Counted from the stretch's first letter, positions 21,840-46,772 are shown. The stretch is DNA of 64,000 bases from Chitinophagaceae bacterium (GCA_947450165.1 CANFUJ010000001.1:5600-69599); one strand, 5' to 3'. Made by a program: numbers and translations. Notes: a model not told the origin generated them from the sequence alone.

Positions 21840-22757
21840 ATGAAATATTCACCTCCGATACCAGAATATTGTGATGAAAATGGATTAAGTGCAAATCACA
21901 ATAAAAAATTCAATGATCTAAGAAAGTATTTTTACAATCATGAAAAAGAAGAAATTTGGCAATCTTATCCCAAATTTTATATCCCACCTGTTTATAATAA
22001 GATTTGTAGAAAAGAATTTGTTAAAACCGAAATTGAAAAACATAGCATTGAAAAAAATGCTATTAATACTAAAGGAATATCAGAATCATCGTTTATATCT
22101 AAAGTTGCAGAAAAGTTTAAAAAAGAATATTTAAATCATGCTGTTTTCCCAGGCAAAGGGGGGATGCCGATTGTGCCAGATATTTTATTACATAATGAAC
22201 ATCTCAACTTTTATTTAGATATTGAAATTGATGAACCATATGCTTGGACAAAAAATATTGAAACTCATTATGCTGGTTCTGATACAAATCGTGATTTTGA
22301 TATCCTTTATGCCAATTGGTTTATACTTCGTTTCACAGAAAGACAAATAGTTGAAAAACCAGAACAATGCATATTGCAAATAGAACACGCTTTAGTTGTA
22401 ATAAATAATATAGTTGATAAAAAAATGGAAACAGACTTTGAAAGAGACTCTTTAATAGAAGAGCCTGCTTGGTCAAAAAGCGATTGCACCAAAATGATGA
22501 TTAGCGATATAAGAAACGATTATCTCTCTTCATTTACATCGACAAGGAGTCAAATTTCAAAATCAATGTCAATTACCGATGGAGACTCATTACTAATTGA
22601 ACGTTGGTTTGCTATTCCAGAAATATGGAGAAAAGTAATTGTTGAATCCATTTTTAACGAACAATTTACCGAAGAATTTGAAATTAGAAAAAACAAGCAA
22701 AATACTTATTGTCACTTGATAAGTTTAATGTTTGGGGTGCAGAGTCTGTTTCAGTAG
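21840..22757 (+). CDS. PD-(D/E)xK / Vsr-DUF559-like nuclease-domain protein (5' part of a frameshifted gene)
   Basis: VPDILL..YLDIEIDEPY..THY..RD..W.ILRFTERQI. Confidence 0.65.
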   Translation: MKYSPPIPEYCDENGLSANHNKKFNDLRKYFYNHEKEEIWQSYPKFYIPPVYNKICRKEFVKTEIEKHSIEKNAINTKGISESSFISKVAEKFKKEYLNHAVFPGKGGMPIVPDILLHNEHLNFYLDIEIDEPYAWTKNIETHYAGSDTNRDFDILYANWFILRFTERQIVEKPEQCILQIEHALVVINNIVDKKMETDFERDSLIEEPAWSKSDCTKMMISDIRNDYLSSFTSTRSQISKSMSITDGDSLLIERWFAIPEIWRKVIVESIFNEQFTEEFEIRKNKQNTYCHLISLMFGVQSLFQ

Positions 22758-23191
22758 AAAGAAACCTAAATAAGATTTCTTTTCAATTAACCACTCTTGA
22801 AGGTTTAGATAAACTAAAATTTCTTTATCGAGTAAAGAATTTTAGTTTATCATATAATTTGATTGATGATATAACTCAACTTTCTAATTTTAATAGAATT
22901 GAGGCACTTACTCTTTGGAACAATCCTTTAATAGATATAAGTCCTATTTCCGAAATGAAAAACCTATATCATCTTAATCTAAGCAACACAAAAGTAGAGG
23001 ATATTTCATGCTTAAAGAACTTACGTGAGTTGAAAAATATATCATTAGATTCGACAAGAATTACTGACATTTCTAGTCTTTTTGAAATGAAAAACCCTAG
23101 CTCAATTTCTTTACAATTTAATAAACAAATTTGTAGAGAAGAAATTGGAAAGCTTAGAATTAAGTTCCCAAAAGCATGGATTCTCTATTAG
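22709..23191 (+). CDS. Internalin-like leucine-rich repeat region (3' part of a frameshifted gene)
   Basis: Repeats LSLSYNLIDDITQL, LTLWNNPLIDISPI, LNLSNTKVEDISCL, ISLDSTRITDISSL; -1 frame relative to the upstream ORF. Confidence 0.75.
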   Translation: MSLDKFNVWGAESVSVERNLNKISFQLTTLEGLDKLKFLYRVKNFSLSYNLIDDITQLSNFNRIEALTLWNNPLIDISPISEMKNLYHLNLSNTKVEDISCLKNLRELKNISLDSTRITDISSLFEMKNPSSISLQFNKQICREEIGKLRIKFPKAWILY

Positions 23192-23219
23192 TAGATTAAA
23201 AAATTTAGAAAAAAATCAC

Positions 23220-23789
23220 ATGAAAAATAATTATCCTTTCATCGTTATTGAAGGTACAGATGGTTCAGGCAAATCAACTTTATGCAATTGGATCTCTGAA
23301 ACTTTTGGATATAGAAAATATAAAAGTATTGGCGGCGCTTTTGCTAAAGTAAAAGATGAGTTTGATATTAATAAAGTATCGATAAAGGAGCGGTTTAGCT
23401 TTCTTTGCGGTGAAGCAATTAATAATGCTTTCATTGTTAAAAAAGAGCTTCAAAACGGCAATCCGATTATATTCGACAGATACTATTATTCAACACTTGT
23501 TTATTGTGAAAGCTTAGACCCCAAAGTTTCATCAGAGTATAAGTTTCTATTTGATGAATTACCCAAGCCTGATTTGGTGCTTTTTGTTCAAACAAATTTT
23601 GAAAATATGCTTAATAGAATTAATGAGAGAGGCAGTTTAACATTGATTGAAAAAAAATACTCGATTGAAGAGAATTTTAATGTTCTAATTTCTAATTACA
23701 TGAAATTTATCGATACAAACAAAAAAATAATTGATAATAATAATAGCATAGATTTCGCTAAAAAACAAATAATTGAAATTCTATCATGA
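23220..23789 (+). CDS. Thymidylate-kinase-like nucleotide kinase
   Basis: IVIEGTDGSGKST, FDRYYYST, PKPDLVLFV. Start placed at MKNNY. Confidence 0.85.
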   Translation: MKNNYPFIVIEGTDGSGKSTLCNWISETFGYRKYKSIGGAFAKVKDEFDINKVSIKERFSFLCGEAINNAFIVKKELQNGNPIIFDRYYYSTLVYCESLDPKVSSEYKFLFDELPKPDLVLFVQTNFENMLNRINERGSLTLIEKKYSIEENFNVLISNYMKFIDTNKKIIDNNNSIDFAKKQIIEILS

Positions 23790-24781
23790 GTAAACAATCA
23801 TCAAAAATTACAATTGATAGTTTTAAAAACATTGACAGCATTGATTTGTATGTTAACTACTTATGCGGCCTTAGATGTAATCATTGTTTTATAGGAGAAT
23901 TGTTAAATTCTAATGTAGAAATGCCATTAGAATTAGCAAAATCAATTGTTGATAAAAGTAAATCAAATGGTGTTAAATCAATCACACTACTTGGTGGGGA
24001 ACCTACACTTTATAGTCAAATAATTGATCTTATTAATCATATAGTAGAAAATGAAATAGTAATTCGAATTGTTACCAATGGACAAAAATCATATCAAAAG
24101 CTTATCTCTAATTTATCGAAAAAAATTTTGAGTAAACTGCACGTATGCTTCAGTATTGATGGCTCAACAGGAACTGTTCATGATTTCATTAGGGGGAAAG
24201 GTACATTCTTAAATCTTGTAAATAGTATTGAATTAACAAGGTCTAAAAATATTTTACATTCTGGTATAACTTCTATTTCAAAAGATAATTATTATGATGC
24301 TACATCAATTATAACACTTTGTTCTACTTACAAAATGGAATATTTAAATGTTCATTATGTCACAGACCGTGGATTTGCTAAAAAAGAAAAAGTATTAAGT
24401 GTTGAAGAATGGTTGAAACTATGCGAAATAATAGAAGGAAAAATTACTAATATTCCAATCCGAATAGAAAAAACATTTGTTCCTATTTCTGATCAAATTG
24501 CTTGTGAAGTAATAAATAAAAGGAATTTGATTGTAGACCCATTAGGAAAAATATATGGATGCACAATGTTTATGAACATAAAAAATTCTGAGTCTGCAAC
24601 ATGGTCAACAAATGGAATTGAAATAAATAATAAAACCAATAATGAGAATTGTATTTGTTCAAACACAGAAAAAGGATGCCCGGCTATGCATTTAATTAAT
24701 AAAGAAATAATTAATGAAGCTGGTTTTAAGGGTTTAAAAATAGATTGCATATTTAATAAGACAACAGTAGAAAAAAAATGA
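23786..24781 (+). CDS. Radical SAM protein with SPASM/Twitch-like Cys-rich C-terminus
   Basis: CGLRCNHC (CxxxCxxC), GGEP, VTNG, SIDG; C-terminal C..DPLGKIYGC..CIC..GC; ATGA overlap with the kinase gene. Confidence 0.9.
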   Translation: MSKQSSKITIDSFKNIDSIDLYVNYLCGLRCNHCFIGELLNSNVEMPLELAKSIVDKSKSNGVKSITLLGGEPTLYSQIIDLINHIVENEIVIRIVTNGQKSYQKLISNLSKKILSKLHVCFSIDGSTGTVHDFIRGKGTFLNLVNSIELTRSKNILHSGITSISKDNYYDATSIITLCSTYKMEYLNVHYVTDRGFAKKEKVLSVEEWLKLCEIIEGKITNIPIRIEKTFVPISDQIACEVINKRNLIVDPLGKIYGCTMFMNIKNSESATWSTNGIEINNKTNNENCICSNTEKGCPAMHLINKEIINEAGFKGLKIDCIFNKTTVEKK

Positions 24782-24997: not shown

Positions 24998-25057
24998 ACA
25001 AAAGAAAAAGAGACAGATTTTTCCACGCGTCACTAACACAATTACCATTGACAATTG

Positions 25058-26749
25058 ATGAAGGAACAGAATAAAATATATGAGAAGTATTTTTTACCAA
25101 ACAACCTTAGGCTTGCTTGGGAAAGAATGGTGCGTTCCAATGGGAATGACATAAAAGATTTTTTCGGAATAGAAATATATTCCGCAAATCTTGAAAAGAA
25201 TTTAATCCGACTTTCAGATGCAATTATTAATGGCGAGTACAAACCGCAAAGACCATTCAAGTATTACGAACCGAAAGCATCAAAAACTCACAGGACAAAA
25301 TCTGTTTTAAGCGTTGAAGATGCTTTAGTTTATCAGGCAATCGCAAACACAGTTGCGGCAGCCAATTACAAAAGATTAGAAGAAAATAACCGTTTTGTTT
25401 TCGGTAGTGTGTTACACCCCGAAGTTGAAAAAGGAATTGACTTGCTGAATGAAGTTGATGCTGACTTTTATTTCTTTGAATACTACATTCCGCTTTATAA
25501 CAAGTTTATCAATTCGGTTAACACAGAAGTCAGCAACACAAATATTCGTTTCAAACTTGAAACGGATATCACAGGTTTCTTTGATTGTATCCCCCACTCC
25601 AAACTTTTAATCACACTGAATAAATTTGGAGTTGAAGAAGAAATACTTGACTTGCTTAACGAATGCTTAAACATTTATTCAGGAACAAAAGAATCTGTAA
25701 CGCCAGGAGTTGGAATACCACAGGGACCAGCAGCTTCATTTTTTTTCGCAAATGTTTTTCTCTCAGACCTTGACTATGAAATAAGCCAAAAGGGTTACAC
25801 GTATTATCGCTATATGGATGACATACGCATCTATGAAGAAACAGAAGACGAACTCACAGAAGCATTAGTGATGATTGATAATTTTCTTAAGGGCAGAGCA
25901 TTGTCATTGAACACGAAAAAAACTTCTATTGAAGAAATAACAGACCGTAAAGCAGAAAAACTTCCATTGCTTACAGCATACGGAGAAGAAACAGATGAAT
26001 ATGAGATTAAAGTTTCCACCAGTGAAAAACAAAAACAGATTTACTTGACGGAGCAAAGCCCCGACAACGACCAAGAGAAAAAATATACAATCAAAACTAT
26101 TGAAGGTGCCGAATTGATTAACTACTGCAAAAAGGAAATTTCAGAAGTTGAAAAATATTTACTTGATAAATTTAAGGACATCACAAAGCTCAACTTCAAT
26201 CCAAGAATATTGGCAAACGATGAACACTTGAAAAAGGAAATCATTCACATTGCCTACCGTTGGAGAAGTTCAAACGCTATTCTCAAAAATCTTGACAAAC
26301 CAATTCTGAATAAAGACCTTATTGAGATATGGCTTTTTTGCGTTGAATATTTTTTTTGGAAAGCAAATCATTTTTGTTGGAATTTGAATCAGTATGATGC
26401 AAACGAATTTGTTACTCAAAAACTAAATGAAATCATTCCAAAGTTTAAAAGTTTTGAGTGGGTTCGTTATCAGATTTTGTCAAACATGGCAACTGTTCAA
26501 AATTTTAATTCTTCAGAGTTAAAAGAGATTTTTAGGAAGTCAAAAGAAGAACATTCAGGGCTTGTTCGAATTGGTTACTACATGATTTTATTGAAACATT
26601 TGCAACCTGACAATCAGCTTTTTGCTTCGCTTCGCCAAGCAATCAAAGACGACAAAGAACCATACATTAGAAATCGCTTGTCAAGTTATTTATCAAGAAA
26701 ATCTGTTAACGAAAAAGTTGACGAAATAAAATATTGGTTTGGCTTATGA
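25058..26749 (+). CDS. Reverse transcriptase with helical (HEAT-like) C-terminus; UG/Abi (DRT-like) class
   Basis: RTKSVLSVEDALVYQAI, ETDITGFFDCIPH, GIPQGPAASFFFANVFL, YYRYMDDIRI, LSLNTKKT. No maturase or HNH domain seen. Confidence 0.9.
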   Translation: MKEQNKIYEKYFLPNNLRLAWERMVRSNGNDIKDFFGIEIYSANLEKNLIRLSDAIINGEYKPQRPFKYYEPKASKTHRTKSVLSVEDALVYQAIANTVAAANYKRLEENNRFVFGSVLHPEVEKGIDLLNEVDADFYFFEYYIPLYNKFINSVNTEVSNTNIRFKLETDITGFFDCIPHSKLLITLNKFGVEEEILDLLNECLNIYSGTKESVTPGVGIPQGPAASFFFANVFLSDLDYEISQKGYTYYRYMDDIRIYEETEDELTEALVMIDNFLKGRALSLNTKKTSIEEITDRKAEKLPLLTAYGEETDEYEIKVSTSEKQKQIYLTEQSPDNDQEKKYTIKTIEGAELINYCKKEISEVEKYLLDKFKDITKLNFNPRILANDEHLKKEIIHIAYRWRSSNAILKNLDKPILNKDLIEIWLFCVEYFFWKANHFCWNLNQYDANEFVTQKLNEIIPKFKSFEWVRYQILSNMATVQNFNSSELKEIFRKSKEEHSGLVRIGYYMILLKHLQPDNQLFASLRQAIKDDKEPYIRNRLSSYLSRKSVNEKVDEIKYWFGL

Positions 26750-27387
26750 ACTTTAGAGAAATAGAAAAAATAGAAAACATAGTTGTTTCAAATGAAACTG
26801 CTGTAAGCAGCCATTTCCATTTGGAAATACTTGAGGATTATTTTGCAAAAGAAAAAAGAAAGTCAGGTGCAAAAGAAAACCCGTTTGACTATTTCTATGA
26901 AGATGTAATTTCATCTTCACTTAGTTTTAATTTCAAATCTGTTTTAGGCGAAGCTCAATTCAAAAACGCATCAGAAGATGCGTTGGCATGTTTAGAAATT
27001 TGTGTTGACTTTTCTAAACTTCCTATTTATTCAATTAACGGTTGGCTACAAAACGCTTTGAAGTTTATAGATCATTTAGTTTTGCATTACATTCAAGAAG
27101 TGCTTAAAGAAACTCCAATCATTTTAGGCGGGGAAGAAAAATCAAGATACATTCAAATAAAAATGAAGAAAGGTGAAATTTCAGATGCAGGTAATAAACT
27201 TGTTTACTTGTATGAATTAAGAAGCAAACAGCTTGAACACAGAACAAGAGTTTTTCCAGACGGAAGGCAAGAAATTATATCACCACCAAGAAAACTTATT
27301 AGAAAAGAAATTGCAAAATCCTTTCCTAATGTTATGAAAATTTTTTTAAGCACTTACAAAGGTATTTATCCGCAATTCAATATTTAA
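26746..27387 (+). CDS. RT-coupled helical protein, possibly HEPN-like
   Basis: ATGA overlap with the RT stop; LYELRSKQLEHR (Rx5H). Confidence 0.55.
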   Translation: MNFREIEKIENIVVSNETAVSSHFHLEILEDYFAKEKRKSGAKENPFDYFYEDVISSSLSFNFKSVLGEAQFKNASEDALACLEICVDFSKLPIYSINGWLQNALKFIDHLVLHYIQEVLKETPIILGGEEKSRYIQIKMKKGEISDAGNKLVYLYELRSKQLEHRTRVFPDGRQEIISPPRKLIRKEIAKSFPNVMKIFLSTYKGIYPQFNI

Positions 27388-27533
27388 TAAGAATTGCTTG
27401 GTGTGTGAGAGTAAAGTTGTGCGACTAAATAATAAAATAAATGAAACACAATCATCTAATACGCCACATTTAATATAACATAATTATTATGGAGACATTA
27501 TTTAACCACATTAAAAAATATAATAAAATTTAA

Positions 27534-29981
27534 ATGGCCAATATTACAATAGGCAATTTGCTTCCTTCAAGATTATCAAGTTCTGACTTGACTAATAACA
27601 CTTTTGTTGGAATAGATTTTGGAACATCAACGACAGTTGTTTCAATTGCTGAATACGAACAAAATAGTAAGAAAATGAATTCTTATTCAATTAAAATAGA
27701 TCAAGAACTTTCAAATGGCATAAAGCACACATCTGAAAAAATTCCAACTGTGATTGCTTATCTAAAGCCTATTGGAAAAAACAAAATAATTGTAGGTCAA
27801 GGGGCTGCTGACCTAAAACATGCTCATGCATTTAAAATTGGTAAAAATATTTGGTACTCTTTCAAGACTGCAATAGGTCAGGATAAGGGAGCTCTATATT
27901 ATGATTGTGATATTGAAAATGAAAACTTGAAAATTAGAAACCCAAGTGATGCTGTAAGTTTATTTTTTAGGTTTTTGAAATCAAAGATTGAAGAATTTGT
28001 TTTGAAAAATAATTTATCTGGTAATATTAAATACACTATTAGTATACCAGCTTCATTCGAAGCCAATCAACGAAGAGAATTAATTACAGCATTAGCTTCT
28101 AATGGTATTCAGTTAGCTAAGCAATCACTTATCGATGAGCCCAATGCAGCATTTTTGAGCTATATCGAACAATCCTTCATTGAAGGTAACCCACTGAAAG
28201 TTCCGGATCATAGAAATGTCAATACGCTTGTTTTCGATTTTGGAGCTGGAACATGTGATGTTTCAATTTTAGAAATAGGAAATGGAGTAAAAGGGTTATA
28301 CTCAAAAAATCTTTCAATATCAAAATACTATGAAATTGGTGGGGATGACATTGATAGATTTATTGCTCTGGAAATACTATTGCCTCAGTTTGCAAACCAA
28401 TGCGAATTAAAAATTAGTGATTTACGAAAAGGTGAAATAAAAAAAGATATTTTACCACTTCTTCTGAAGACAGCAGAGCAGTTAAAAATTATGATTTGTG
28501 AAAAAGTTGACCTGCAATTTAGCAGTAAACTTTTGCCAACACTTGCTTTGTCTAATGAAAAGGTTGAAGTTGGATATGAAATTGAAATTGAAGTACCTCG
28601 TTTAGGCAAATTTATTTACACCAATCCAAGTTTAAGCTTTTCTGATTTTCAAAGTGCAATGAAGATATTTTGCAATCAGAAACAAATAAGACCTCATTCA
28701 ATTTTTGATTTCGTTAAACCTTTTGAATCAATCTTCAATCCAGTTAAGACAGCTTTACACAAGGCAAAACTTCGAAATGAAGATATTGATTATGTATTGT
28801 TCATTGGAGGTAGTAGTAAAAATCCCTACATAAGAAATGCAATTAATCAATATTTTCCTGACTCCGAAATAATTGTTCCATCAGATCTTCAAACGCATGT
28901 TTCTAAGGGAGCAGCAATTCATTCTTTAATATTCAACGGTTTTGCTAAAAATTTAATTCAGCCAATAACAAGTGAACCAGTTTTGGTTCTGACAAAGCAA
29001 GGGTTAGTAACTCTTATTTCAGCAGGTACAGAAGTGCCAAGTGAAATAAATCGAATAGATGATTTAATAATTTCAGAAGATGGATTAGAACTTGTTGAAC
29101 TTCCAATATTCCTTGGCTCAATAGACAAAATGCTTTTTAATTTCAAAGTTTATAGACCACATAATAAAAAGTTCAAGAGAGGAGATATAGTTAAAGTAGC
29201 AGCAGAAATTAATTCAGATAAGATACTTAGCTTGAGATGTTATATTGATGAAAGCGAGATAATTTGTGAGCCCCTTTCACCTTTTTCTAATTCGGAAATG
29301 ACAACAAACGAGAGAGTTGTCGCGATAGCGGAGAAAAATTTTAATATTCAAGCAGAAAGGAATAATGGTGTTCCTACAAAAGAAGGATACGAAAGTCTAT
29401 ATAAGTCTTATAAAGACAATGGATTTAAGTTGCTCGCAGCTCAAACTCTTGAAGAGTTGAACGATAAATATCCAAGTTCGAGTATGTTGAATGAAATTGG
29501 GGTATTATATTCAATTGCCGGAGATAAAATAAAAGCCCTAGAATACTATGAGAAGGCTCATTCTGCAAATCCTGGAAATTCAACTATCGCTTTCAATTTA
29601 GCGATTGAATATAAGTACGAAGACAATGAAAAATTTGAAAATATGGTTGAAAAGGTGCTTCAAATGGAACCAGATGACCCTGAAGCACTTTTAGAGAAAG
29701 GCAGAATTTTGAATAAAAAGAGTAAGAATTCTGGTAATGAATTGATTGAAAAAGCTTTTAACAAATACAAGTTAAAGTTTGATAATAATCGACTACAAGA
29801 ATGGGAATTTAGTTGGTTTGAATCAACCGCAAATGAACTTGGCAAGTTTGATATGGCAAGGCTAATAAGAGAAAGTCAGCCAAAACAAAAAACAGATGGT
29901 TTATGGAATGACAAAAACCTTACTAGTAAAAGTAATTTTTTAGAACAACTTAAAATTGGTAACGATGGCTTGGATGATTAG
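27534..29981 (+). CDS. Divergent Hsp70-family ATPase with C-terminal TPR-like region
   Basis: GIDFGTS, IPASF, IDEPNAA, FDFGAGTCDVS, GGDDID, FIGGSSKNP, VSKGAA; C-terminal LNEIGVLYS..ALEYYEKA..P TPR pattern. Not housekeeping DnaK. Confidence 0.9.
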   Translation: MANITIGNLLPSRLSSSDLTNNTFVGIDFGTSTTVVSIAEYEQNSKKMNSYSIKIDQELSNGIKHTSEKIPTVIAYLKPIGKNKIIVGQGAADLKHAHAFKIGKNIWYSFKTAIGQDKGALYYDCDIENENLKIRNPSDAVSLFFRFLKSKIEEFVLKNNLSGNIKYTISIPASFEANQRRELITALASNGIQLAKQSLIDEPNAAFLSYIEQSFIEGNPLKVPDHRNVNTLVFDFGAGTCDVSILEIGNGVKGLYSKNLSISKYYEIGGDDIDRFIALEILLPQFANQCELKISDLRKGEIKKDILPLLLKTAEQLKIMICEKVDLQFSSKLLPTLALSNEKVEVGYEIEIEVPRLGKFIYTNPSLSFSDFQSAMKIFCNQKQIRPHSIFDFVKPFESIFNPVKTALHKAKLRNEDIDYVLFIGGSSKNPYIRNAINQYFPDSEIIVPSDLQTHVSKGAAIHSLIFNGFAKNLIQPITSEPVLVLTKQGLVTLISAGTEVPSEINRIDDLIISEDGLELVELPIFLGSIDKMLFNFKVYRPHNKKFKRGDIVKVAAEINSDKILSLRCYIDESEIICEPLSPFSNSEMTTNERVVAIAEKNFNIQAERNNGVPTKEGYESLYKSYKDNGFKLLAAQTLEELNDKYPSSSMLNEIGVLYSIAGDKIKALEYYEKAHSANPGNSTIAFNLAIEYKYEDNEKFENMVEKVLQMEPDDPEALLEKGRILNKKSKNSGNELIEKAFNKYKLKFDNNRLQEWEFSWFESTANELGKFDMARLIRESQPKQKTDGLWNDKNLTSKSNFLEQLKIGNDGLDD

Positions 29982-31164
29982 TGAAGAAAAATTAGATCCA
30001 AATCAAAAGGAAATATTTAAAAAACCTATTGATAAAAATCTATGGATTAAAGGATTTGCTGGTAGTGGAAAATCAGTTTTACTTATCCATAAGCTTCGTA
30101 AAATATTAAAAGATAATCCCAATGCGGATACCTGTGTGGTTGTATTTACCTGGTCTATGATTGACATGTTTAAAACAGGAATGAAAGAACTTAATTTACC
30201 TGATACAATTCCAGTAATTACTTATTTCAAATTCAAAGATTTGGGGTCCAATACTTATGACTACATTTTCTGTGACGAAGTACAAGACCTTCCAGAGAGC
30301 ATATTAGTTTTAATGAAGAATCGATTAAAGCATAAAGGAAAAATCATTGTCTCGGGTGATTCCAATCAATCGATATATGAATTAGCCCCAGGTCTTATGG
30401 AACCAACTGTAAATCCTGAAGACATTGGTAAAGTAATAGATGCGGAAGAAATCGTATTGAATTACGTTCATCGTGTAACAAGAACAATTATTAATGCAAT
30501 ACAAAAATTGCTGCCCAAAACAAATATATGGGCTGCTAACCGTGAGTTTACTCCGCCAGATAGAAGTATTGCGCTTTACAAATCATCAAAGCAAGAGGAT
30601 GAGGTAAAATATGTTTTTGAAGAAGCGTTAAAAGGCCCTAATTCCTCTGGAAGAGACAAAATGGAAACTAGTGTTATTTTACTTCCAAGACATGATGAAA
30701 TTGTAAATTTCATTCAATTACTACTTTTGCAAAAAGGGTGTACTTCCTGGACTGAAAAAAAAGATCGGTATGGAAAGAATCCGGACTATGATGACCTTAA
30801 CAGATACTTATCATCCAATAGTATCAAATTGCAATACGTTGGAAATGGGAAAGGAAGTTTACAAGATGCCGAGAGAAACAGACAAGTAATTATAATGACC
30901 TATCATAGTTCAAAGGGGCTTGATTTTGATAATGTTTTTTTACCTTTTTTATCTTGGGATCTCTCAATCAGTAAAACAAAATCTGATGTACTTTTAATGG
31001 TAGCTATGACAAGAAGTAAAAAGAATTTAACGATTACATATTCTGGCAACCATCATGCATTACTTGAGAAATTTATTAACGATGATGCAATTGTAACGCC
31101 TATAAGTGTGAATAGCAATAAGAGCAACCTTTCCAATCTGAATGACATAGAACTAGACTTTTAA
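29965..31164 (+). CDS. Small SF1 (UvrD-like) helicase/ATPase
   Basis: GFAGSGKS, DEVQD, GDSNQS, TYHSSKGLDFD, MVAMTRSK; overlaps the Hsp70 stop. Confidence 0.85.
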   Translation: MAWMISEEKLDPNQKEIFKKPIDKNLWIKGFAGSGKSVLLIHKLRKILKDNPNADTCVVVFTWSMIDMFKTGMKELNLPDTIPVITYFKFKDLGSNTYDYIFCDEVQDLPESILVLMKNRLKHKGKIIVSGDSNQSIYELAPGLMEPTVNPEDIGKVIDAEEIVLNYVHRVTRTIINAIQKLLPKTNIWAANREFTPPDRSIALYKSSKQEDEVKYVFEEALKGPNSSGRDKMETSVILLPRHDEIVNFIQLLLLQKGCTSWTEKKDRYGKNPDYDDLNRYLSSNSIKLQYVGNGKGSLQDAERNRQVIIMTYHSSKGLDFDNVFLPFLSWDLSISKTKSDVLLMVAMTRSKKNLTITYSGNHHALLEKFINDDAIVTPISVNSNKSNLSNLNDIELDF

Positions 31165-31166
31165 TT

Positions 31167-32783
31167 ATGAAAAAATATCTTGCAGTAATATCCAGTGAAC
31201 AGTTCGATACTCTATATCGTTTCGGGAAGTTATATCACCCGATATTCTTATCAACTGAAGATCAAGATGAAAAGTCTGTAATTGAAATATTCAATTCGTT
31301 TATTCAATTTGTTTATGATGAAAATTATTTGGTTTTAGAATATATAGTACCAGATGTTGAAGAGAAGCCGTTCCATCTTATTAAAATTGAAAATATTGAA
31401 AGAATATTTCCAATATCAAATGAATGTCGAGAGGCTCTTGTTTTAAAAAAATCATCAAAAATTAAATTTGAAAATCCATTCTTTTCAAATAGCGCTTATG
31501 AAAAGATAAACCATGAGTACTTTATTTCGGAGGCTATTGGTGGAAGTAGTATTCTTTTAAAAACATTCAAATATGAAAATGAATCTGTTCAATTATCAAG
31601 TGAGATAAAATCTGCCGTCTTAAAACTCAGAAAAGGTTTGAAAATTGGTAGATTAGATAATAAGGCTACAATAGTAGATTTTTGTTTTTTGTATGTTTAT
31701 GAAGCTTATTATCCCCTGAATATAATAGGATATATGATTCGGACTGCGGAAATATTTACCAGATATAAACTTGCAGAGAAAAATGTGCAATATTCTCCTG
31801 ATATACTTGAAAAGAGAGATATATATCAAATGTTGATTGAGTTGAATTCCAAGCAAACCGCAATTAATTTTGACAAACTCTTAGATGAGCTCACAATAGA
31901 TTCTAGAGCTACCAATTTCACTTCAAATCTAATTGTAGATAATTTAAAATACTATATTGTTATACTGTTATTTTTGAAGACAGTTGATGAATTTAATGAA
32001 AACGGTGGGACGCTTGATAAAACAAACCTAAATAAAATAATTGAAAACTATCATTCAGTTTATAGCGAAGAATGTAAGATGCTTTTGACATGGCTAGGTT
32101 CCTATTTGGGTTATGGAAATTGTTATGATTTTTGCTATAATAAGTTGAATCTGAAAATTTTTACTACTTACAAGAGTATTGATTTAGTTGAAAGCAAAAC
32201 AGCAGAAATAATCAATTCAGAAATACATTTAATTGGATCTACAGAAGCTAATCAAATGTCTGAGATTAGTTCAAATGAAAATGCAATAAATAATAAAGTT
32301 GAAGATGCCTCAGAAATTTCAAATTCAATTGATGACGATATAAATAATGAATTAGATGGCAAGGCAGAAATTATATCTCCAGTAATAGAAGAGAAATTGA
32401 ATAATTCAATGTTTGAGATTATTTCAAATGAAAATGCAATAAATAATAAAGTTGAAGATGCCTCAGAAATTTCAAATTCAATCGATGATGTCAATTTAAA
32501 TAATGAATTAGATGGCAAGGCAGAAATTATATCGCCGGTAAATAACAAAGGATTGCCTCTTGAATTTTTGCCATTAGATCAGTTAAAATTAGAGAAAGCT
32601 GGATTTACTTATGTGAAAAAAATTTGGCTTGAATCAATGAAATTGAACCAAAGTAATGATGAGCAAGTGAATCATTTTATTTCAATAATTGAAAAAGAGT
32701 TAACTATTTCAAAAAAACAAAAACAAAAAATAAAATTTGAAGAATTTGAAAGAATAAAAAGTTTTTTACTTATCAATAACTAA
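31167..32783 (+). CDS. Hypothetical protein with internal 51-aa duplication
   Basis: 538-aa ORF starting 2 nt after the helicase stop. Confidence 0.7.
   Translation: MKKYLAVISSEQFDTLYRFGKLYHPIFLSTEDQDEKSVIEIFNSFIQFVYDENYLVLEYIVPDVEEKPFHLIKIENIERIFPISNECREALVLKKSSKIKFENPFFSNSAYEKINHEYFISEAIGGSSILLKTFKYENESVQLSSEIKSAVLKLRKGLKIGRLDNKATIVDFCFLYVYEAYYPLNIIGYMIRTAEIFTRYKLAEKNVQYSPDILEKRDIYQMLIELNSKQTAINFDKLLDELTIDSRATNFTSNLIVDNLKYYIVILLFLKTVDEFNENGGTLDKTNLNKIIENYHSVYSEECKMLLTWLGSYLGYGNCYDFCYNKLNLKIFTTYKSIDLVESKTAEIINSEIHLIGSTEANQMSEISSNENAINNKVEDASEISNSIDDDINNELDGKAEIISPVIEEKLNNSMFEIISNENAINNKVEDASEISNSIDDVNLNNELDGKAEIISPVNNKGLPLEFLPLDQLKLEKAGFTYVKKIWLESMKLNQSNDEQVNHFISIIEKELTISKKQKQKIKFEEFERIKSFLLINN
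32262..32541 (+). repeat. In-frame tandem duplication (period about 153 nt)
   Basis: SNENAINNKVEDASEISNSIDD..NNELDGKAEIISPV occurs twice, near-identical at DNA level. Confidence 0.9.
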
Positions 32784-33332
32784 TAATAAGATTATCTTAT
32801 TGACCTAAAAAACCGGGTAAACTCGCTTTTTTTATCATTTTTAAACTGAAGCGGATAATCTTGCGATATCAAGCTTAAACCGGTTATTTCACCCCCCCCA
32901 GCCTCTATTTACTTTTTATTCCTGTAGCTGATTTGTACCTCGCCCCTAAAAGCCTTTACTGGTAATGGAGTTCATTAAGACAGACTTCCACAATCCCATT
33001 TATTTGTAAATGCTTCATATGGCATAAAGAAATCGTGTTTTTTCAAGAATGAATGAAATGAGTTTGGAAGGAGAAATCATTGCAATATCAGATTTTGAGA
33101 TAATCGTCAAACTTTCAAAAGGAGATTTATTTATTGACTTAAAATCTGATAATTTCATAAAGAATATTGTATTTGATTCTTTTGAACAAAACTATATTGT
33201 CAATTCGGGAAAGTGAAGAGGATGCGAAAGAAATAAAATATTATTTTATTATCTTTATTATAACTCATAAAACTGTAAATGTAATACCATAAAAAACCTT
33301 GAATATTTTTAACTAGGAATAAACAATTCTCC

Positions 33333-34748
33333 ATGATTGACAACAATCTTCTCAAAACATATGCTAACCATTTTTATAAATTAGGACTCAATGTAACTTG
33401 TATTTCAAATGAAAGAAATCAATGGAATTTATTAGACAATAACTTATTTAAATCTCCTTGTCACGAATGGATAAGTTTACAATCATATAGACAAACTGAA
33501 GAAGAGTTAATTTCATATAATTGGGAAAAAGCAATTGGAATAGGAACAGTTTTAGGACATAATAATTTAATGGCACTTGATATAGATGGGTGCGTAGAGG
33601 ATGATTTTATAAAGTTAATTTGCGATATAATTGGACTCAATTACAATTATGATTGGATAATTAAATCAGGGAGTGGATGCGGTTTTCACATATTATTTAG
33701 GTGCAATGATGTTCAAATTAATAAAGAAGAAATAGAAAAAGAATTAGCTCTTAAACAATGGCTTCATGTTGATGATTTCGGTTATTCAGAGGTTAATGCG
33801 TATTATCCTAATTGGGAAGAACAGACTTATACTTTTGAGAATTTATCGAGTGAAACTTACACACTATATGACAAAACAATTTTAAAAAAACATTTCAATG
33901 ACAATTTTCTTTTAGCTGACCTTTTTCAAAAGATAGAATTTAGATGGAAAGGTCATTCTGTTTTACCTATTTCTTTACATCAGTCTGGCCTTACATACAA
34001 TTTTGTTAACGGCATACCTAAATCCTCACCATCTGAGATTTCATTTAGTTCACTTCAAAAATTAAAACAATTAATATGCGCTAAAAAGGCTGATTTTAGT
34101 GGGAATGAACCAAAAACAATTATGCACGCATATGAAGACAGTATTTCTAACGCCCCCAATTTTAAAGGATGGAATAACTATTTGACATATGAAATATTGA
34201 CTAACGATGCTACTTTGGATTTCAATAGAGAAATTGATGATAGTTTTAATTTATCTAGGCTTTTACAGATTTCTTGGCTAATTGTTGACATATATTCTAA
34301 CGTAATTAAAAAAGAAAGTTATATTATTAAACCTATAAACTTTGAAATAAGTTCAGATAGTGTTTTATTAAATGGAATAACAAAAGAAAAAGCTATTATA
34401 CTTGGAGAAGATTTAAAGGTAGTATTAGATAAATTTCTAAATGACTTAAACAATTGCCCTTTATTAGTTTGTTACAATTATAATTATAACTCTAAAGTAA
34501 TTCTATCTGAAATGAAAAAATCTGGATTAAATCAAAATCTATATCAAAACAAAAGACACATTTCATTGATAAATCATTTTGATTTAAATGATGGTGAAAA
34601 TCACATAGTATCCTTTAATGAATTGTATAATTTGCATTTTGATAAAGAATTAAATTTCATACAAAATGCCGGTTTTATTGCTAACGTTTCTAAAATTATT
34701 TTTTCAAAAAGTTTTTTGTATGATGAATTACCCAAAAGATATCTATAA
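33333..34748 (+). CDS. Prim-Pol domain + degenerate DEDD exonuclease domain (paralog of 14545)
   Basis: KSPCHEW, GIGTVLGHNNLMALDIDG, SGSGCGFHI, VLPISLHQSG; LLQISWLIVD..YIIKP..NGITKEKA aligns to the exonuclease at 10517. Confidence 0.8.
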   Translation: MIDNNLLKTYANHFYKLGLNVTCISNERNQWNLLDNNLFKSPCHEWISLQSYRQTEEELISYNWEKAIGIGTVLGHNNLMALDIDGCVEDDFIKLICDIIGLNYNYDWIIKSGSGCGFHILFRCNDVQINKEEIEKELALKQWLHVDDFGYSEVNAYYPNWEEQTYTFENLSSETYTLYDKTILKKHFNDNFLLADLFQKIEFRWKGHSVLPISLHQSGLTYNFVNGIPKSSPSEISFSSLQKLKQLICAKKADFSGNEPKTIMHAYEDSISNAPNFKGWNNYLTYEILTNDATLDFNREIDDSFNLSRLLQISWLIVDIYSNVIKKESYIIKPINFEISSDSVLLNGITKEKAIILGEDLKVVLDKFLNDLNNCPLLVCYNYNYNSKVILSEMKKSGLNQNLYQNKRHISLINHFDLNDGENHIVSFNELYNLHFDKELNFIQNAGFIANVSKIIFSKSFLYDELPKRYL

Positions 34749-34782
34749 ATATCAATAGAGTTTATAATAACATTTTGCACAT

Positions 34783-36225
34783 TTGCCAGACCCAATCCAA
34801 CATATCAAATTATCCGAGCTGAATAAGCAAATTCAAGCAGTTGTAGTAAGCAACTTCAATGAATTAGCACTTTGGGTAATTGCAGATATTACAAACCATA
34901 GTTTCAAAGAAAAAACCAATTACCATTATTTTGATTTAGTCGAGAAATCAGAAAACTCTAATGAATTGGTTGCAAAGATTTCTGGAAAAGCATGGGGAAC
35001 TGGTGCAACTAAAATCCGTGAATTTGAAAAAATCACAGGACAAAAATTCACGAATAACATTAATGTACTCGCTAAAGTCAAAGTAAATTATCACATTGTA
35101 TTTGGATTGTCTTTAGATATTTTAGAAGTAGACGCAAACTTTACAATTGGTGTATTAGAGCAACAAAGGCAAGCCACACTTTCTAGTTTAGTTGAAAATA
35201 ATCCCGAAGTAATTTCTAAGGTTGGTGATAGATATGTTACAAGAAATGCTAAGCTTTCGCTTCCAATGATTATCCAACGCATTGCAGTAGTGTCATCTAA
35301 AACATCAGCCGGTAACGAAGATTTTAAACACACGCTTTTAAACAATCCTTATAATTATAAATTTGAAATAGACGATTACCACACTGTCGTTCAAAATGAT
35401 GCAAATGCGCAACAATTTCTCGATCGTTTAATTGATGTTTTTAAATCGGGTATTCCTTATGATGTTGTTGTAATTAATCGAGGTGGCGGAGCTCAAACAG
35501 ATTTTTTAATATTTGACAACTATAAAATTGGGTTAGCTGTTGCTCGTTTTCCAATTCCAATTATTACAGGCATCGGTCATCAAAAAAACGAGACCATCAC
35601 CGATTTGATGGCGCATACACAAACAAAGACGCCTACCAAAGCTGCCGAATTTATTATAACCCATAATAAACTTTTTGAAGATTCAATTTTGGGCTTTCAA
35701 AAAAAAATACTGATAAAGTCTCAACAAACATTTTCGTCTAACTATCAAAAACTTACTATACTTAAAACATCAATTGTAAATAAGTCGAGAACATTTATTA
35801 ACGACTATAAAGACGATCTCGTAATCAACAATCAAATTGTAGTTAATAAAACAAAGACACTTCTGTTTAAAAGTAAAAATGCTTTATCTTTTATAGCATC
35901 TACTTTAATATCAAAACCTAAAGTAATTACTGGAAACAAGTTAAACGACTTAGCAAACAAAATAAGTAATATTCATACCTTTAAAACTAGTTATTTAAGA
36001 AGTCAAAGGGCGTATTTGGGGCATTACGTTTCAGTTATTAATTTAATGTCGCCGGCGAATATTTTAAAAAAAGGATTTGCAATAATTAAACATAATGGAG
36101 AAATTACAAGCAATCCCGATATGCTTACTCCTGGCTCAGAAATGGAAGTAATCTTATTGGACAAATCAATAAAATCAACAGTAAAATCAAAATCAACGTA
36201 TAATGGAAAAGAATTTAACATATGA
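34783..36225 (+). CDS. xseA: Exodeoxyribonuclease VII large subunit (divergent)
   Basis: OB fold (WVIADI..HYYFDL), RIAVVSS..AG..DF, VINRGGG, TGIGHQ..DL.AH..KTPTKAA, LKKGFAI; TTG start. Confidence 0.9.
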   Translation: MPDPIQHIKLSELNKQIQAVVVSNFNELALWVIADITNHSFKEKTNYHYFDLVEKSENSNELVAKISGKAWGTGATKIREFEKITGQKFTNNINVLAKVKVNYHIVFGLSLDILEVDANFTIGVLEQQRQATLSSLVENNPEVISKVGDRYVTRNAKLSLPMIIQRIAVVSSKTSAGNEDFKHTLLNNPYNYKFEIDDYHTVVQNDANAQQFLDRLIDVFKSGIPYDVVVINRGGGAQTDFLIFDNYKIGLAVARFPIPIITGIGHQKNETITDLMAHTQTKTPTKAAEFIITHNKLFEDSILGFQKKILIKSQQTFSSNYQKLTILKTSIVNKSRTFINDYKDDLVINNQIVVNKTKTLLFKSKNALSFIASTLISKPKVITGNKLNDLANKISNIHTFKTSYLRSQRAYLGHYVSVINLMSPANILKKGFAIIKHNGEITSNPDMLTPGSEMEVILLDKSIKSTVKSKSTYNGKEFNI

Positions 36226-36937: not shown

Positions 36938-37267
36938 ATGTCCGATATAAAAACAATAACAGAAGCACTCACCAATTTTCGTAACGAACGCGATTGGGAG
37001 CAATTTCATAATCCCAAAGATTTAGCGCTCGCCATCAATGTTGAGGCCGGAGAATTGCTTGAATTATTTCTCTGGAAAAATGCAGCAGAGGCCAATAAAG
37101 AAAAAATAAAAGAAGAACTAGCTGACGTTTTCGCATATGCATTTTTACTTGCCGATAAATTCCAATTTGATGTGAAAGAAATCATCCTCGACAAAATACA
37201 AAAGAACGCCGAAAAATATCCAGTAGAAAAAGCAAAGGGTACCGCAAAAAAATACAACGAGCTATGA
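36938..37267 (+). CDS. MazG-like nucleotide pyrophosphohydrolase
   Basis: ERDWEQFHNPKDLALAINVEAGELLE..EELADV..KNAEKYP. Confidence 0.9.
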   Translation: MSDIKTITEALTNFRNERDWEQFHNPKDLALAINVEAGELLELFLWKNAAEANKEKIKEELADVFAYAFLLADKFQFDVKEIILDKIQKNAEKYPVEKAKGTAKKYNEL

Positions 37268-39120
37268 TTGTATATAACGCCACAAAGACTGATTTTTTAA
37301 ATGATGTGCTTACCAATGAGATAGAGAACATCGTTTTGAAAAATGTAAAATTGAAACTGAACCGAGGTGTGGGTATAGCCGAAATACGTTCTTGGGCATC
37401 TTCATTAAGTTACATGGACCGAATCATGCAAGATGCAATGATACCTAATGATTGTGGTATTGCGATTGAATACCAGATTCCTCAAACTGGGAAAAGAATA
37501 GATTTTATCATTTCCGGACAAAACGAAGACAGCAAAGATTCTGTAATACTGATAGAATTAAAACAATGGTCCGAGGCCAAATTAACCAGCAAGGATTCTA
37601 TTGTAGAAACTTTTGTAGGCGGAAGAATTGGAGAACATACACATCCATCTTATCAGGCATGGTCATACGCAACATTATTGCAAGGGTTTAATGAGGTAGT
37701 TTATAAAGAGAATATTCAATTGCATCCTTGTGCTTATTTACACAACTATGCAGAAGATGGTGTAATACGAAATGAGTTTTATGCCGAGTACATCAATAAA
37801 GCACCGGTATTTCTGAAAAACGATGCCATTAAGTTTCGTGAATTTATTAAAAAGCATGTGCGGTATGGAGATAGGAGCAATATTTTGTATCGCATTGAAA
37901 ATGGAAAAATAAAACCATCCAAAATGCTTGCCGACAGCATTACCAAGATGATAAAAGGCAACCAGGAATTTGTGATGATTGACGATCAGAAAGTGGTTTA
38001 TGAAAATGCAATTGCTCTTGCTAAACATGCAAGTGAAACAAATAAACAGGTATTGATTGTGAAAGGCGGCCCCGGAACTGGGAAATCTGTGGTGGCAATT
38101 AATTTATTGGTGGAATTAACCAAGCTCGGTTTGCTTACACAATATGTTTCTAAAAATGCAGCGCCTCGTGCGGTGTATGAAGCCCGACTAACGGGAAGCG
38201 TTAAAGCAACTGAGATAAGAAATATGTTCCGAGGTTCGGGTGCGTTTATTGGTTCGCCTACCAATGAATACGATGCATTGATTGTAGATGAAGCACATCG
38301 CTTAAACAGATTCAGCGGACTGTATGGTAACCAAGGAGAAAACCAGATTAAAGAAATTATTCACGCCTCCAAATTTTCTATTTTCTTTTTAGATGAAGAC
38401 CAAAGGGTAACCTTAAAAGACATTGGCCAAAAAGAAGAAATCATTAAATGGGCGCATTTATCCAATGCAAGTATTACTGAACTGGAATTGAATTCACAAT
38501 TTCGTTGTAATGGTTCTGATGGTTATCTGGCCTGGCTTGATAATACATTACAAATCAGAGAAACGGTTAATCAGGATTTATCAGGAGTAGATTATGATTT
38601 CAGGGTATTGGATAATCCTGCAGAACTCAGAGAATTAATTATTGAAAAAAATAACATCAACAACAGAGCACGAATCGTTGCCGGATACTGTTGGAAATGG
38701 CCCAGTAAAAAAGATTTCAATGCCTACGATATTGAATTTCCGGATTACGATTTCCGGATGAAATGGAACCTTACCGAAGATGGCAGTACTTGGATTATCA
38801 GTCCTAAATCTGTAAATGAAGTGGGCTGTATCCATACCTGTCAGGGACTTGAGGTGGATTACATTGGCGTAATCATTGGTGATGATTTAATTGTAAGAAA
38901 TGGCATAGTAATAACTGATGCTTCCAAAAGAGCGAGTTCGGATAATTCTGTAAAGGGGTATAAAAAAATGATGAAAGAAAATCCGGAGGAAGCTAAAGAG
39001 CAACTTGATTTGATTATAAAGAATACATATAGAACGCTTATGACGAGAGGAATGAAGGGTTGTTATGTGTATTGTGTGGATGAGGAGACGAGGGAGTATT
39101 TTAAAAATGCAATTAAATAA
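37264..39120 (+). CDS. DUF2075 protein (PD-(D/E)xK-like N-domain + SF1-like helicase)
   Basis: RIDFII..IELKQW, GGPGTGKS, VDEAH, SQFRC, TCQGLE, YRTLMTRG; ATGA overlap with the MazG-like gene. Confidence 0.85.
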   Translation: MIVYNATKTDFLNDVLTNEIENIVLKNVKLKLNRGVGIAEIRSWASSLSYMDRIMQDAMIPNDCGIAIEYQIPQTGKRIDFIISGQNEDSKDSVILIELKQWSEAKLTSKDSIVETFVGGRIGEHTHPSYQAWSYATLLQGFNEVVYKENIQLHPCAYLHNYAEDGVIRNEFYAEYINKAPVFLKNDAIKFREFIKKHVRYGDRSNILYRIENGKIKPSKMLADSITKMIKGNQEFVMIDDQKVVYENAIALAKHASETNKQVLIVKGGPGTGKSVVAINLLVELTKLGLLTQYVSKNAAPRAVYEARLTGSVKATEIRNMFRGSGAFIGSPTNEYDALIVDEAHRLNRFSGLYGNQGENQIKEIIHASKFSIFFLDEDQRVTLKDIGQKEEIIKWAHLSNASITELELNSQFRCNGSDGYLAWLDNTLQIRETVNQDLSGVDYDFRVLDNPAELRELIIEKNNINNRARIVAGYCWKWPSKKDFNAYDIEFPDYDFRMKWNLTEDGSTWIISPKSVNEVGCIHTCQGLEVDYIGVIIGDDLIVRNGIVITDASKRASSDNSVKGYKKMMKENPEEAKEQLDLIIKNTYRTLMTRGMKGCYVYCVDEETREYFKNAIK

Positions 39121-39122
39121 AA

Positions 39123-40178: not shown

Positions 40179-40555
40179 TGAACGAAAATAAACCTTGCCC
40201 TTTCTGTAATGTAGAAAGAGAAAAAATATTGGAAACAGAATTGTCATTTGCTATTTATGACGGCTTTCCGGTAAATGAAGGACATGCATTGATTATTCCA
40301 AAAAGGCACACTGCCAATTATTTTGATTTGTCAATAGATGAGCAGAAAAATTGTATAGAATTATTAAATCGTGTTAAAGGAATTTTACAAGAAAAATATA
40401 ATCCTGCTGGTTTCAATGTGGGTATTAATATTAATGAAGCCGCTGGGCAAACGGTGCCTCATGTACATATACATTTGATACCGAGGTATGAGGGGGATGT
40501 TGAAGAGCCAAGAGGTGGTGTGAGGGGTGTGGTGCCAGGGAGGAGGAATTATTAA
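40178..40555 (+). CDS. HIT family nucleotide hydrolase
   Basis: CPFC, HALIIPKRH, GQTVPHVHIHLIPR (HxHxH). Confidence 0.92.
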   Translation: MNENKPCPFCNVEREKILETELSFAIYDGFPVNEGHALIIPKRHTANYFDLSIDEQKNCIELLNRVKGILQEKYNPAGFNVGININEAAGQTVPHVHIHLIPRYEGDVEEPRGGVRGVVPGRRNY

Positions 40556-43510: not shown

Positions 43511-43540
43511 TGGAAATAATACAAGCAATAAAATAATATA

Positions 43541-44206: not shown

Positions 44207-44246
44207 AAATTAACACAAATAATTTTAACACAAAACCATTTTTGTA

Positions 44247-46751: not shown

Positions 46752-46772
46752 AAGAGTAAGGAATAATTTAGT

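Follow-up and report, generated by a model that had tools for sequence, protein, structure and literature searches.

A mobile three-gene cassette of an Hsp70-TPR ATPase, a minimal SF1 helicase and a fast-evolving third protein, a candidate defence system found mostly in Bacteroidota

The Hsp70-helicase cassette of a Chitinophagaceae bacterium

We analysed a stretch of 64,000 nucleotides (nt) from a Chitinophagaceae bacterium (GCA_947450165.1 CANFUJ010000001.1:5600-69599), hereafter the window, in which three co-directional open reading frames (ORFs), here called genes A, B and C, occupy positions 27534-32783 on the plus strand. Gene A encodes an Hsp70-family ATPase with tetratricopeptide (TPR) repeats, gene B a minimal superfamily 1 (SF1) helicase and gene C a fast-evolving protein that fell into no family; their features are collected in Table 1. 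An earlier note on this DNA, made from the sequence alone, had described an Hsp70 with intact nucleotide-binding motifs and a TPR tail in place of the lid, a minimal SF1 helicase overlapping it and, 2 nt further on, a 538-amino-acid (aa) protein of no known family, all lying inside a defence island, and it had proposed a chaperone-gated defence system of a composition not yet named. This description of the genes and of their surroundings was confirmed, with a corrected start for B and with a further domain recognised in A; the proposed function was upheld in part and is weighed below.

The three genes are inherited and transferred together

A pattern scan that took one genome for each GTDB species (185,579 representatives) recovered the cassette from at least 136 of these representatives, in several phyla, and 80 loci were fetched; loci are cited here by L numbers. 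The neighbourhoods of three A homologues, inspected first, already held the triad. Gene order was then scored with local hidden Markov models for A, B and C in the 63 loci having at least 3 kb downstream of A, and in 61 of these the order A-B-C was kept on the same strand. The survey around this Hsp70 clade that the earlier note had called for thus ruled out that the three genes fail to co-occur elsewhere. Typically 1-30 nt separate A from B and 2-12 nt separate B from C, or the genes overlap shortly, and the median lengths of the products are 809, 390 and 488 aa, respectively. The pairwise-identity matrices of the three proteins were correlated (Spearman coefficients of 0.89 for A-B, 0.79 for A-C and 0.74 for B-C), indicating that A, B and C were inherited together.

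The hosts are mostly Bacteroidota (Flavobacteriia, Cytophagia, Chitinophagia and gut and rumen Bacteroidales). Metagenome-assembled genomes (MAGs) labelled Lachnospiraceae, Roseburia, Pseudobutyrivibrio, Bifidobacteriaceae, Campylobacterota, Desulfobacterota, Ignavibacteriota, Rhodothermales, Verrucomicrobiota and Gracilibacteria also carried the cassette, and some of these assignments may be binning errors. One chromosomal and one plasmid copy were present in Hymenobacter sp. 102 (L039, L040), and two distant versions were found in PLSDB, on the Antarctobacter plasmid pSMS3-3, where IS6 and IS256 elements flank it, and on the Persicobacter plasmid pPP6. No match to the cassette was obtained in 50,697 phage records. 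In the relative L087, whose A protein is 85% identical, DNA similarity to the window was confined to 27596-32173, and the cassette sits there after a C5-methylase/SNF2/HATPase/HNH cluster, which is a different island. The unit of transfer therefore appears to be the cassette and not its surroundings, and A-B-C is very probably a functional, mobile, conflict-associated three-gene unit.

Gene A encodes an Hsp70 with TPR repeats at the position of the lid

The A protein matched Pfam HSP70 with an E-value of 1.1e-24 and several Pfam TPR families at about 1e-4. Against the NCBIfam DnaK and HscA models it gave E-values of about 1e-24, yet its scores lay far under the equivalog cut-offs (85.9 bits versus 822.55 for TIGR02350 and 71.7 versus 708.55 for HscA), and its TPR part matched NCBIfam TPR proteins at 2.5e-7 to 1.8e-5. 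With these scores, and with no alpha-helical lid (SBDalpha), A is not a canonical DnaK or HscA. The matches listed included over 120 relatives of full length, about 808 aa (clusters at 90% identity).

An AlphaFold2 model built from 20 family members (mean pLDDT 74 on the predicted local distance difference test) showed a nucleotide-binding domain (NBD) at residues 1-470 followed by a beta-sandwich (475-581), from which a connecting helix leads to about five helix pairs (616-781). The top Foldseek matches of this model were full-length DnaK, BiP and Ssb (E 1e-25), and it superposed on structures comprising an NBD and a beta-sandwich substrate-binding domain (SBDbeta) with a target TM-score (TMt) of 0.62-0.67 (0.67 for 6eof). 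By phmmer, A aligned with DnaK as far as DnaK residue ~445, and residues 648-730 matched designed consensus TPR proteins (E 6e-21). The TPR tail that the earlier note had placed where the lid should be was thus recovered by Pfam, phmmer and AlphaFold2, the retained SBDbeta being our refinement.

The catalytic residues were conserved without exception. No substitution was observed in any of 59 complete triads at D28, G30, T31, K111, E202, D235, G237, G239, T240 and GGS425-427, and the two phosphate motifs read D28-F-G-T-S-T and D235-F-G-A-G-T240; the nucleotide-binding motifs are thus intact in all of these triads. The interdomain linker P-I-T/V-x-E was conserved as well, with P477, I478 and E481 invariant in the same triads. 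Median pairwise identity within A was 48% for the NBD, 47% for SBDbeta and 36% for the TPR part. On the evidence of sequence and model, A is a genuine Hsp70 that keeps the NBD, the linker and SBDbeta and has TPR repeats in place of the helical lid; peptide binding is predicted for it, and it is judged to be catalytically competent, its ATPase having been kept active. Pfam and NCBIfam scans detected no J-domain co-chaperone and no GrpE in the cassette of the window.

Gene B encodes a minimal helicase with a conserved C-terminal tail

Three Pfam families (UvrD_C, UvrD-helicase and AAA_19) were matched by B, and its SF1 motifs read GSGKS, DEVQD, GDSNQS, TYHSSKGLDFD and VAMTRS. Motifs I, II, III and VI were invariant in 59 of 59 proteins, and motif V was invariant at K320 and D323 (numbered on the 402-aa ORF that opens at TTG 29956) and near-invariant elsewhere. 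Since the homologues of B begin with MAWMI(R/S)E..LDP, its start was placed at ATG 29965 and not at TTG 29956, which leaves an overlap of 17 nt with A. The alignments of B with UvrD and PcrA from the Protein Data Bank (PDB) were confined to the RecA-core motifs, from which the 1B and 2B subdomains are judged to be largely missing; about 50 and about 80 residues stand where UvrD carries them. B is thus predicted to be a catalytically competent, accessory-domain-free helicase of the UvrD-like type. Its best PADLOC matches were GajB models (7.2e-19), in two to three short stretches on the shared SF1 motifs, and it also matched the models of the DRT-associated RTasHel, AbiO and Nhi helicases, a generic similarity of the UvrD clade.

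A newly noted feature of the helicase is its conserved tail. The B family ends in [FWYIL]-[D/G/V]-[F/I]-COOH, preceded by a polar linker rich in S, T and N; 50 of 57 unique B proteins (88%) fit this motif, and Phe is the last residue in 48 of the 57. Examples are NNFDF, IDLGF, NPWGF and EPLIVF, the window having IELDF. Even the distant versions on plasmids, with A proteins only 26-32% identical, retain the tail (DDELFF, SIDDLF), and an unrelated minimal helicase of the window at 16924-17958 lacks the motif. Docking peptides classically take such a form, a short and conserved extreme C-terminus of acidic and aromatic character. Because A and B are the sole constant partners across the family, and because A offers both a TPR groove and a beta-sandwich cleft, we propose that the tail is probably a docking peptide tethering B to A, by its conservation and by analogy. 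Both halves of a C-terminal docking arrangement, the tail peptide on B and the TPR domain on A, are present, the binding itself being predicted.

Two loci have a second B-like helicase between A and B (L034:9321-10568, 415 aa; L074:4390-5646, 418 aa), and these extra paralogues carry an aromatic tail of their own.

Gene C is fast-evolving and falls into no family

The C protein of the window had no match in Pfam, NCBIfam or PADLOC and none in a sequence-profile search of the PDB, in agreement with the earlier note. When 57 members of the C family were compared with Pfam and PADLOC, isolated single-member matches only were obtained, those of the C-terminal domain being weak (DUF3320 at 1.9e-8, MarR and the MCM3 winged-helix family at 0.046). 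A profile search for homologues of C returned the same six proteins as the first search. An exhaustive HMMER search gave 194 clusters at 50% identity, all of 400-650 aa, with no bridge to any other family.

Structure prediction of this third ORF, which the earlier note had suggested, was informative in part: three C-terminal helices (477-491, 497-513 and 524-535, pLDDT 74-89) and a portion of the N-terminal region (pLDDT 70-88 for residues 112-320 only) were modelled, the linker fell under 30, and the model as a whole was poor (pLDDT 54).

By the alignments, C diverges far faster than A and B, which keep pace with each other: median pairwise identity was 19% for C versus 44% for A and 43% for B. 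Y176 is the only invariant residue, the remaining conserved positions being mostly aromatic or Gly, and the R178/D192 pair of most members is changed to Y/R in the clade of the window; with such conservation, an enzyme with a fixed catalytic site was rejected. The linker ranges from 15 to 139 aa across the family and is net acidic in 39 of 57 members. In the window it contains a 153-nt tandem duplication (32255-32541, 1.9 copies, 92% matches by Tandem Repeats Finder, TRF), and the close homologue P0122 has no second copy, so linker length changes over short times.

On the two plasmids with distant versions, A and B were clearly homologous, and the third protein had no detectable relation to C; remote homology was sought with hmmsearch, which found nothing, and with hhalign, which gave E-values of 0.08 and 0.55, and was not supported. 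Given these non-homologous replacements, C resembles a fixed effector less than it does a variable subunit that gives specificity or acts as an adaptor, and it is apparently non-enzymatic by its pattern of conservation. Two further candidate relationships were discarded: hhalign found no relation between C and the 489-aa protein that follows the other minimal helicase of the window, and the C-terminal domain of C had no similarity to the DUF3320 tails of neighbouring PDC-S68-like helicases.

Table 1. Features of the cassette; positions are counted from the first letter of the window
Feature	Position	Strand	Basis
Gene A, Hsp70-family ATPase with C-terminal TPR domain, 815 aa	27534-29981	+	Pfam, AlphaFold2, Foldseek, relatives
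A, NBD (aa 1-470) with intact phosphate-1, phosphate-2 and adenosine motifs	27534-28943	+	Invariant residues in 59/59 triads
A, interdomain linker (QPITSEP, aa 476-482) and beta-sandwich substrate-binding-like domain (aa 471-585)	28944-29288	+	AlphaFold2, phmmer, Foldseek
A, connecting helix and TPR repeats (aa 586-785) at lid position	29289-29888	+	AlphaFold2, phmmer, NCBIfam
Gene B, minimal UvrD-like SF1 helicase, 399 aa from ATG 29965 (mechanical ORF from TTG 29956)	29965-31164	+	Pfam, PADLOC, PDB, motifs
B, C-terminal tail IELDF-COOH, proposed docking peptide	31147-31161	+	50/57 unique B proteins fit motif
Gene C, fast-evolving protein of no family, 538 aa, beginning 2 nt past the B stop	31167-32783	+	Follows B in 61/63 loci
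C, conserved N-terminal region (aa 1-335): small alpha/beta part, then all-helical part	31167-32171	+	Alignments, AlphaFold2
C, variable polar/acidic linker (aa 336-460)	32172-32546	+	TRF, pLDDT
C, small C-terminal three-helix domain (aa 461-538), possibly winged-helix-like	32547-32783	+	AlphaFold2
AT-rich spacer 5' of A	27388-27533	+	Presumed promoter region of cassette

In the upstream region, a scan for sigma-70 promoters and terminators gave results at the level of shuffled sequences, the models used not covering Bacteroidota promoters. A non-coding gap of 550 nt (32784-33332) follows gene C; it contains a C8 run (near 32894) and, at about 33049-33216, an ORF of 55 codons, and it had no Rfam match and no terminator-like site on the plus strand.

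Defence genes surround the cassette

The placement inside a defence island was borne out on both sides of the cassette. Directly upstream (25055-27387) lies a DRT-type pair, a reverse transcriptase of the UG19 group (RT_UG19, E 4.7e-123) and an overlapping 217-aa partner of the RTas1465 type (E 1.6e-45). Further upstream, 22709-24781 holds, in a row, the gene of a leucine-rich-repeat protein, one resembling thymidylate kinase (PADLOC VakA / PDC-M51B) and one of the radical-SAM kind that matches pVip models, a combination that looks like prokaryotic viperin with a kinase. The segment 16924-21193 encodes the 344-aa minimal UvrD-like helicase mentioned above, which is 21% identical to B, followed by a 589-aa ADP-ribosyltransferase-glycohydrolase protein (2CompART/2CompARG) and by the 489-aa protein, which had no family match; PADLOC has no model for these two. 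This segment may represent a second three-gene unit. On the downstream side were found, at 36938-40555, the genes of a MazG-like protein and a Schlafen-group-3/DUF2075 helicase together with one HNH and one HIT gene, and then two C5 DNA methylases, a 221-aa protein of no family, an 834-aa AAA_5 protein (PADLOC REase_II) and a 645-aa protein likewise of no family (40778-48710). Between these and the cassette, 33333-36225 encodes a Prim-Pol-like protein (weak, E 1.9e-4) and a homologue of the exonuclease VII large subunit (E 7.5e-55), which is either housekeeping xseA or part of the island.

At the other loci, the 123 nearest neighbours, taken as raw counts without a genomic background, included PADLOC matches to PDC-S68, mad2, Type I methyltransferases, MkoA/MkoC, Hhe and RecD-like proteins, and Pfam matches to integrases and transposases. 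A PDC-S68 gene (an Upf1-like helicase fused to an MTES_1575/DUF559 nuclease, 1230-1660 aa) lies directly upstream of A on the same strand in five loci (L026, L049, L060, L065 and L068), ending 20-1000 nt before it, and may be a recurrent partner of the cassette.

Some relatives have additional genes adjoining the triad. A TerB-like fourth gene of about 110-135 aa follows C in 13 loci of the scan (L028, L034, L041, L043-L047, L051, L054, L061, L063 and L067, mostly from gut and rumen Bacteroidales and one from a MAG labelled Roseburia) and also at L089:7966-8343; the window has none. In two Campylobacterota loci a large protein with a J-domain-like segment (...CHPDIV...) overlaps the end of C (L062:11970-14819 and L074:8469-10436), and the one at L062 also has a C-terminal DUF4145 (HEPN-like) domain, so that these proteins could be co-chaperone-effector fusions. 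A J-domain as a general partner of the cassette was rejected, a local J-domain profile giving only these two marginal cases. In one metagenomic lineage the gene of a ClpB-like AAA+ disaggregase (L089:1-2385, also L090) overlaps the start of A by 4 nt. The TerB-, J-domain- and ClpB-like neighbours give weak side evidence of a chaperone logic in some relatives.

A chaperone-switched defence system as the favoured interpretation

We favour, at about even confidence, the interpretation that A-B-C is a self-contained, horizontally mobile and so far undescribed system against phages or other mobile genetic elements, built on an Hsp70-type ATP switch. In such a system the B tail would dock in the TPR groove of A, in the manner of an EEVD peptide, or in its beta-sandwich cleft, and would thereby tether the helicase, which the ATP-driven open/closed cycle of A would keep inactive until infection. 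C would serve as the variable specificity or adaptor subunit, either presenting a phage cue or binding nucleic acid through its C-terminal helical domain. Once the cue was engaged, the Hsp70 cycle would release the helicase or load it onto the nucleic acid of the invader, where it might disrupt replication or transcription complexes or burn ATP, so that infection would be stopped directly or by abortive infection. Of the proposal in the earlier note, a conserved defence unit was supported by the co-inheritance, the mobility and the neighbours, the parts given to the Hsp70/TPR (sensor or refolder) and to the helicase with the third protein (effector) being putative; C in particular looks unlike a fixed effector, since no catalytic-looking site is conserved in it and distant versions have another protein in its stead.

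A bolder version, which we regard as doubtful, would make this the first immune system with a dedicated Hsp70 as its core switch, the client-binding cycle both sensing infection and licensing a helicase that an EEVD-like tail holds on the TPR domain of the Hsp70, and C acting as a phage-specific receptor or as a decoy client.

Several points weigh against the defence interpretation. No nuclease, toxin, pore or other effector domain was detected in A, B or C by Pfam, NCBIfam and PADLOC, and how infection would be stopped is therefore guesswork. The defence role is deduced from the genes and their context, the neighbours are counted raw as stated above, and the docking of the tail on the TPR domain is argued from conservation and analogy. 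The J-like segment is marginal, with a DnaJ score under the Pfam cut-off and a DnaJ-like PDB match of E 0.011, and it occurs in two loci only. Two of the 63 scored loci depart from the triad, one with a divergent solo A (L083, a Desulfobacterales MAG) and one with a truncated A (L080). The poor AlphaFold2 model of C was built from six sequences, and a Foldseek search with it against PDB and BFVD returned nothing under E 0.4. Finally, the sequencing runs containing the locus were of metagenomic DNA only, with 0 RNA runs among them.

Alternative explanations

It appears unlikely that the cassette performs RNA-directed surveillance in the way of the CoCoNuT proteins CnuD, CnuH and CnuE, with A binding aberrant or viral RNA or ribosomes, B unwinding RNA and C as adaptor or effector. 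The CoCoNuT study does predict joint action on RNA for a protein of the Hsp70 NBD/SBD type carrying HEAT repeats, for an SF1 helicase and for a winged helix-turn-helix effector encoded downstream (PMC11090510), and the DUF4145 (HEPN-like) protein that follows C in two Campylobacterota loci would fit such a role. However, the cassette contains neither an McrB-like GTPase nor McrC, and neither recurs among its neighbours; no domain of an RNase was detected among the three proteins, and B matched models of the UvrD/PcrA type and not the UPF1-type AAA_11/AAA_12. The Walker A-like motifs of CnuD are, moreover, described as degenerate, whereas the ATPase residues of A are invariant.

We consider it rather improbable that the cassette serves the mobile elements themselves, whether as a module for addiction or stability, as a device against host defence or as a helper of replication or transfer. 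DnaK assists some plasmid and phage initiators, plasmid copies of the cassette exist, integrases and transposases adjoin it, and the small helical C-terminal domain of C could bind DNA. Against this, the phage records gave no match at all, the immediate neighbours are mainly defence genes and not genes of replication or conjugation, and the cassette also occupies chromosomal sites with no obvious element. Nor did family scans and a conservation scan reveal any initiator (HUH/Rep), partition or relaxase motif in C.

A specialised housekeeping or stress module with no role in conflict, in which a chaperone-helicase pair would clear protein-nucleic-acid roadblocks or aggregates, is very improbable. 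UvrD, Rep and PcrA strip proteins off DNA, A keeps the full Hsp70 architecture, and one locus has the overlapping ClpB-like gene upstream, all of which would suit such a function. Its distribution, on the other hand, is patchy (136 of 185,579 species representatives by the patterns used) and suggests transfer across phyla, its genomic context is variable and rich in defence genes, and its third protein evolves very rapidly and gives way to others in distant versions, as conflict genes typically do. That three unrelated genes adjoin by chance was refuted by the survey, as order and spacing are kept in 61 of 63 loci across phyla and the divergence of the three proteins is correlated.

Implications of the cassette

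The cassette is thus an unnamed and widespread candidate defence system, whose composition was not described before in the libraries searched. It is present in many gut, rumen, soil and freshwater Bacteroidota and was missed by the models of PADLOC v2, so that defence inventories of Bacteroidota may under-count it, a matter of relevance to phage work with gut and environmental strains. If the role in defence is true, the Hsp70 fold would join the NTP-driven immune switches (STAND, AAA+, ABC, dynamin and SMC), and a compact, widespread system would be at hand for studying a chaperone cycle as a signalling device. The fast-evolving C may map phage specificity, and the four-residue tail of B should decide whether the complex forms. 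If the Hsp70 is indeed the core switch, the cassette would be a prokaryotic counterpart, with reversed polarity, of the eukaryotic wiring between Hsp70 and its TPR co-chaperones.

Comparison with known systems

Within PADLOC v2.0.0 and the literature searched, no named system of this composition was found, as the earlier note had supposed: PADLOC has no model for A or C, the only match of A being to PDC-M61B (E 0.014 over 27 residues), and full-text searching of the literature found no description of an Hsp70-TPR/helicase/C triad. The nearest described relative, compared by description, is the accessory set of type III CoCoNuT systems, which for type III-B as well as type III-C comprises CnuD (Hsp70 NBD/SBD with HEAT repeats), CnuH (an SF1 helicase) and CnuE (a downstream effector) (PMC11090510). 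In both, an Hsp70-like NBD and SBD joined to alpha-helical repeats are accompanied by an SF1 helicase and, downstream, by a variable protein, and both lie in defence islands. However, the cassette has neither the McrB-type NxD GTPase with coiled coil (CnuB) nor McrC with its N-terminal DUF2357 (CnuC), the defining parts of CoCoNuT; AAA_5/McrB and DUF2357 were found neither in the cassette nor among the 25 commonest families of the 123 flanking proteins, and the AAA_5 gene of the window lies 14 kb away in the separate methylase cluster. B is of the minimal UvrD type, whereas CnuH is UPF1-like with a large helical/OB insertion or coiled-coil inserts; the ATPase motifs of A are intact, whereas those of CnuD are reported to be degenerate (PMC11090510); and A has TPR repeats where CnuD has HEAT repeats, a distinction again drawn from the description.

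Gabija likewise combines a UvrD-like helicase with a second ATPase in a compact defence operon. There the partner is GajA, an OLD ATPase-TOPRIM nuclease, whereas here it is an Hsp70 and the cassette has no nuclease; GajA/OLD models of PADLOC and Pfam matched neither A nor C. B, of about 390 aa, shares only the core motifs with the GajB models of 500-650 aa. With canonical Hsp70 proteins, A has in common the NBD, the hydrophobic linker, SBDbeta and the invariant catalytic residues, and it differs in having TPR repeats for the lid; the core cassette brings no J-protein and no GrpE.

The predicted GTPase-centric conflict systems with HSP70 and tubulin, found mainly in actinobacteria and firmicutes (Kaur et al., 2020, PMC7159879), also include an Hsp70-family ATPase, for which the role of NTP-dependent switch or of assembly factor was proposed; fusions involving TPR or DnaJ sometimes lie close by (PMC7159879). 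The cassette differs from them in having no GTPase, tubulin, GrpE or FNIII-repeat protein, and they have no SF1 helicase; families of TRAFAC GTPases and tubulin were found neither in the cassette nor among its recurrent neighbours. A loose precedent for a chaperone in immunity is bNACHT25, which is reported to sense phage via the host DnaJ (PMC12169576), whereas in the present case the chaperone is encoded by the cassette itself and is not borrowed from the host.

Sensors of the STAND/Avs type resemble A in fusing an NTP switch to TPR repeats, and they differ from it in their P-loop, A having the actin/Hsp70 fold and no fused effector. In eukaryotes, the EEVD tails of Hsp70 and Hsp90 dock on the TPR clamps of the co-chaperones Hop and CHIP. 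The cassette similarly has a short acidic-aromatic C-terminal peptide and a TPR domain within one system, and the polarity is reversed, with the TPR domain on the Hsp70 (A) and the tail on the helicase (B).

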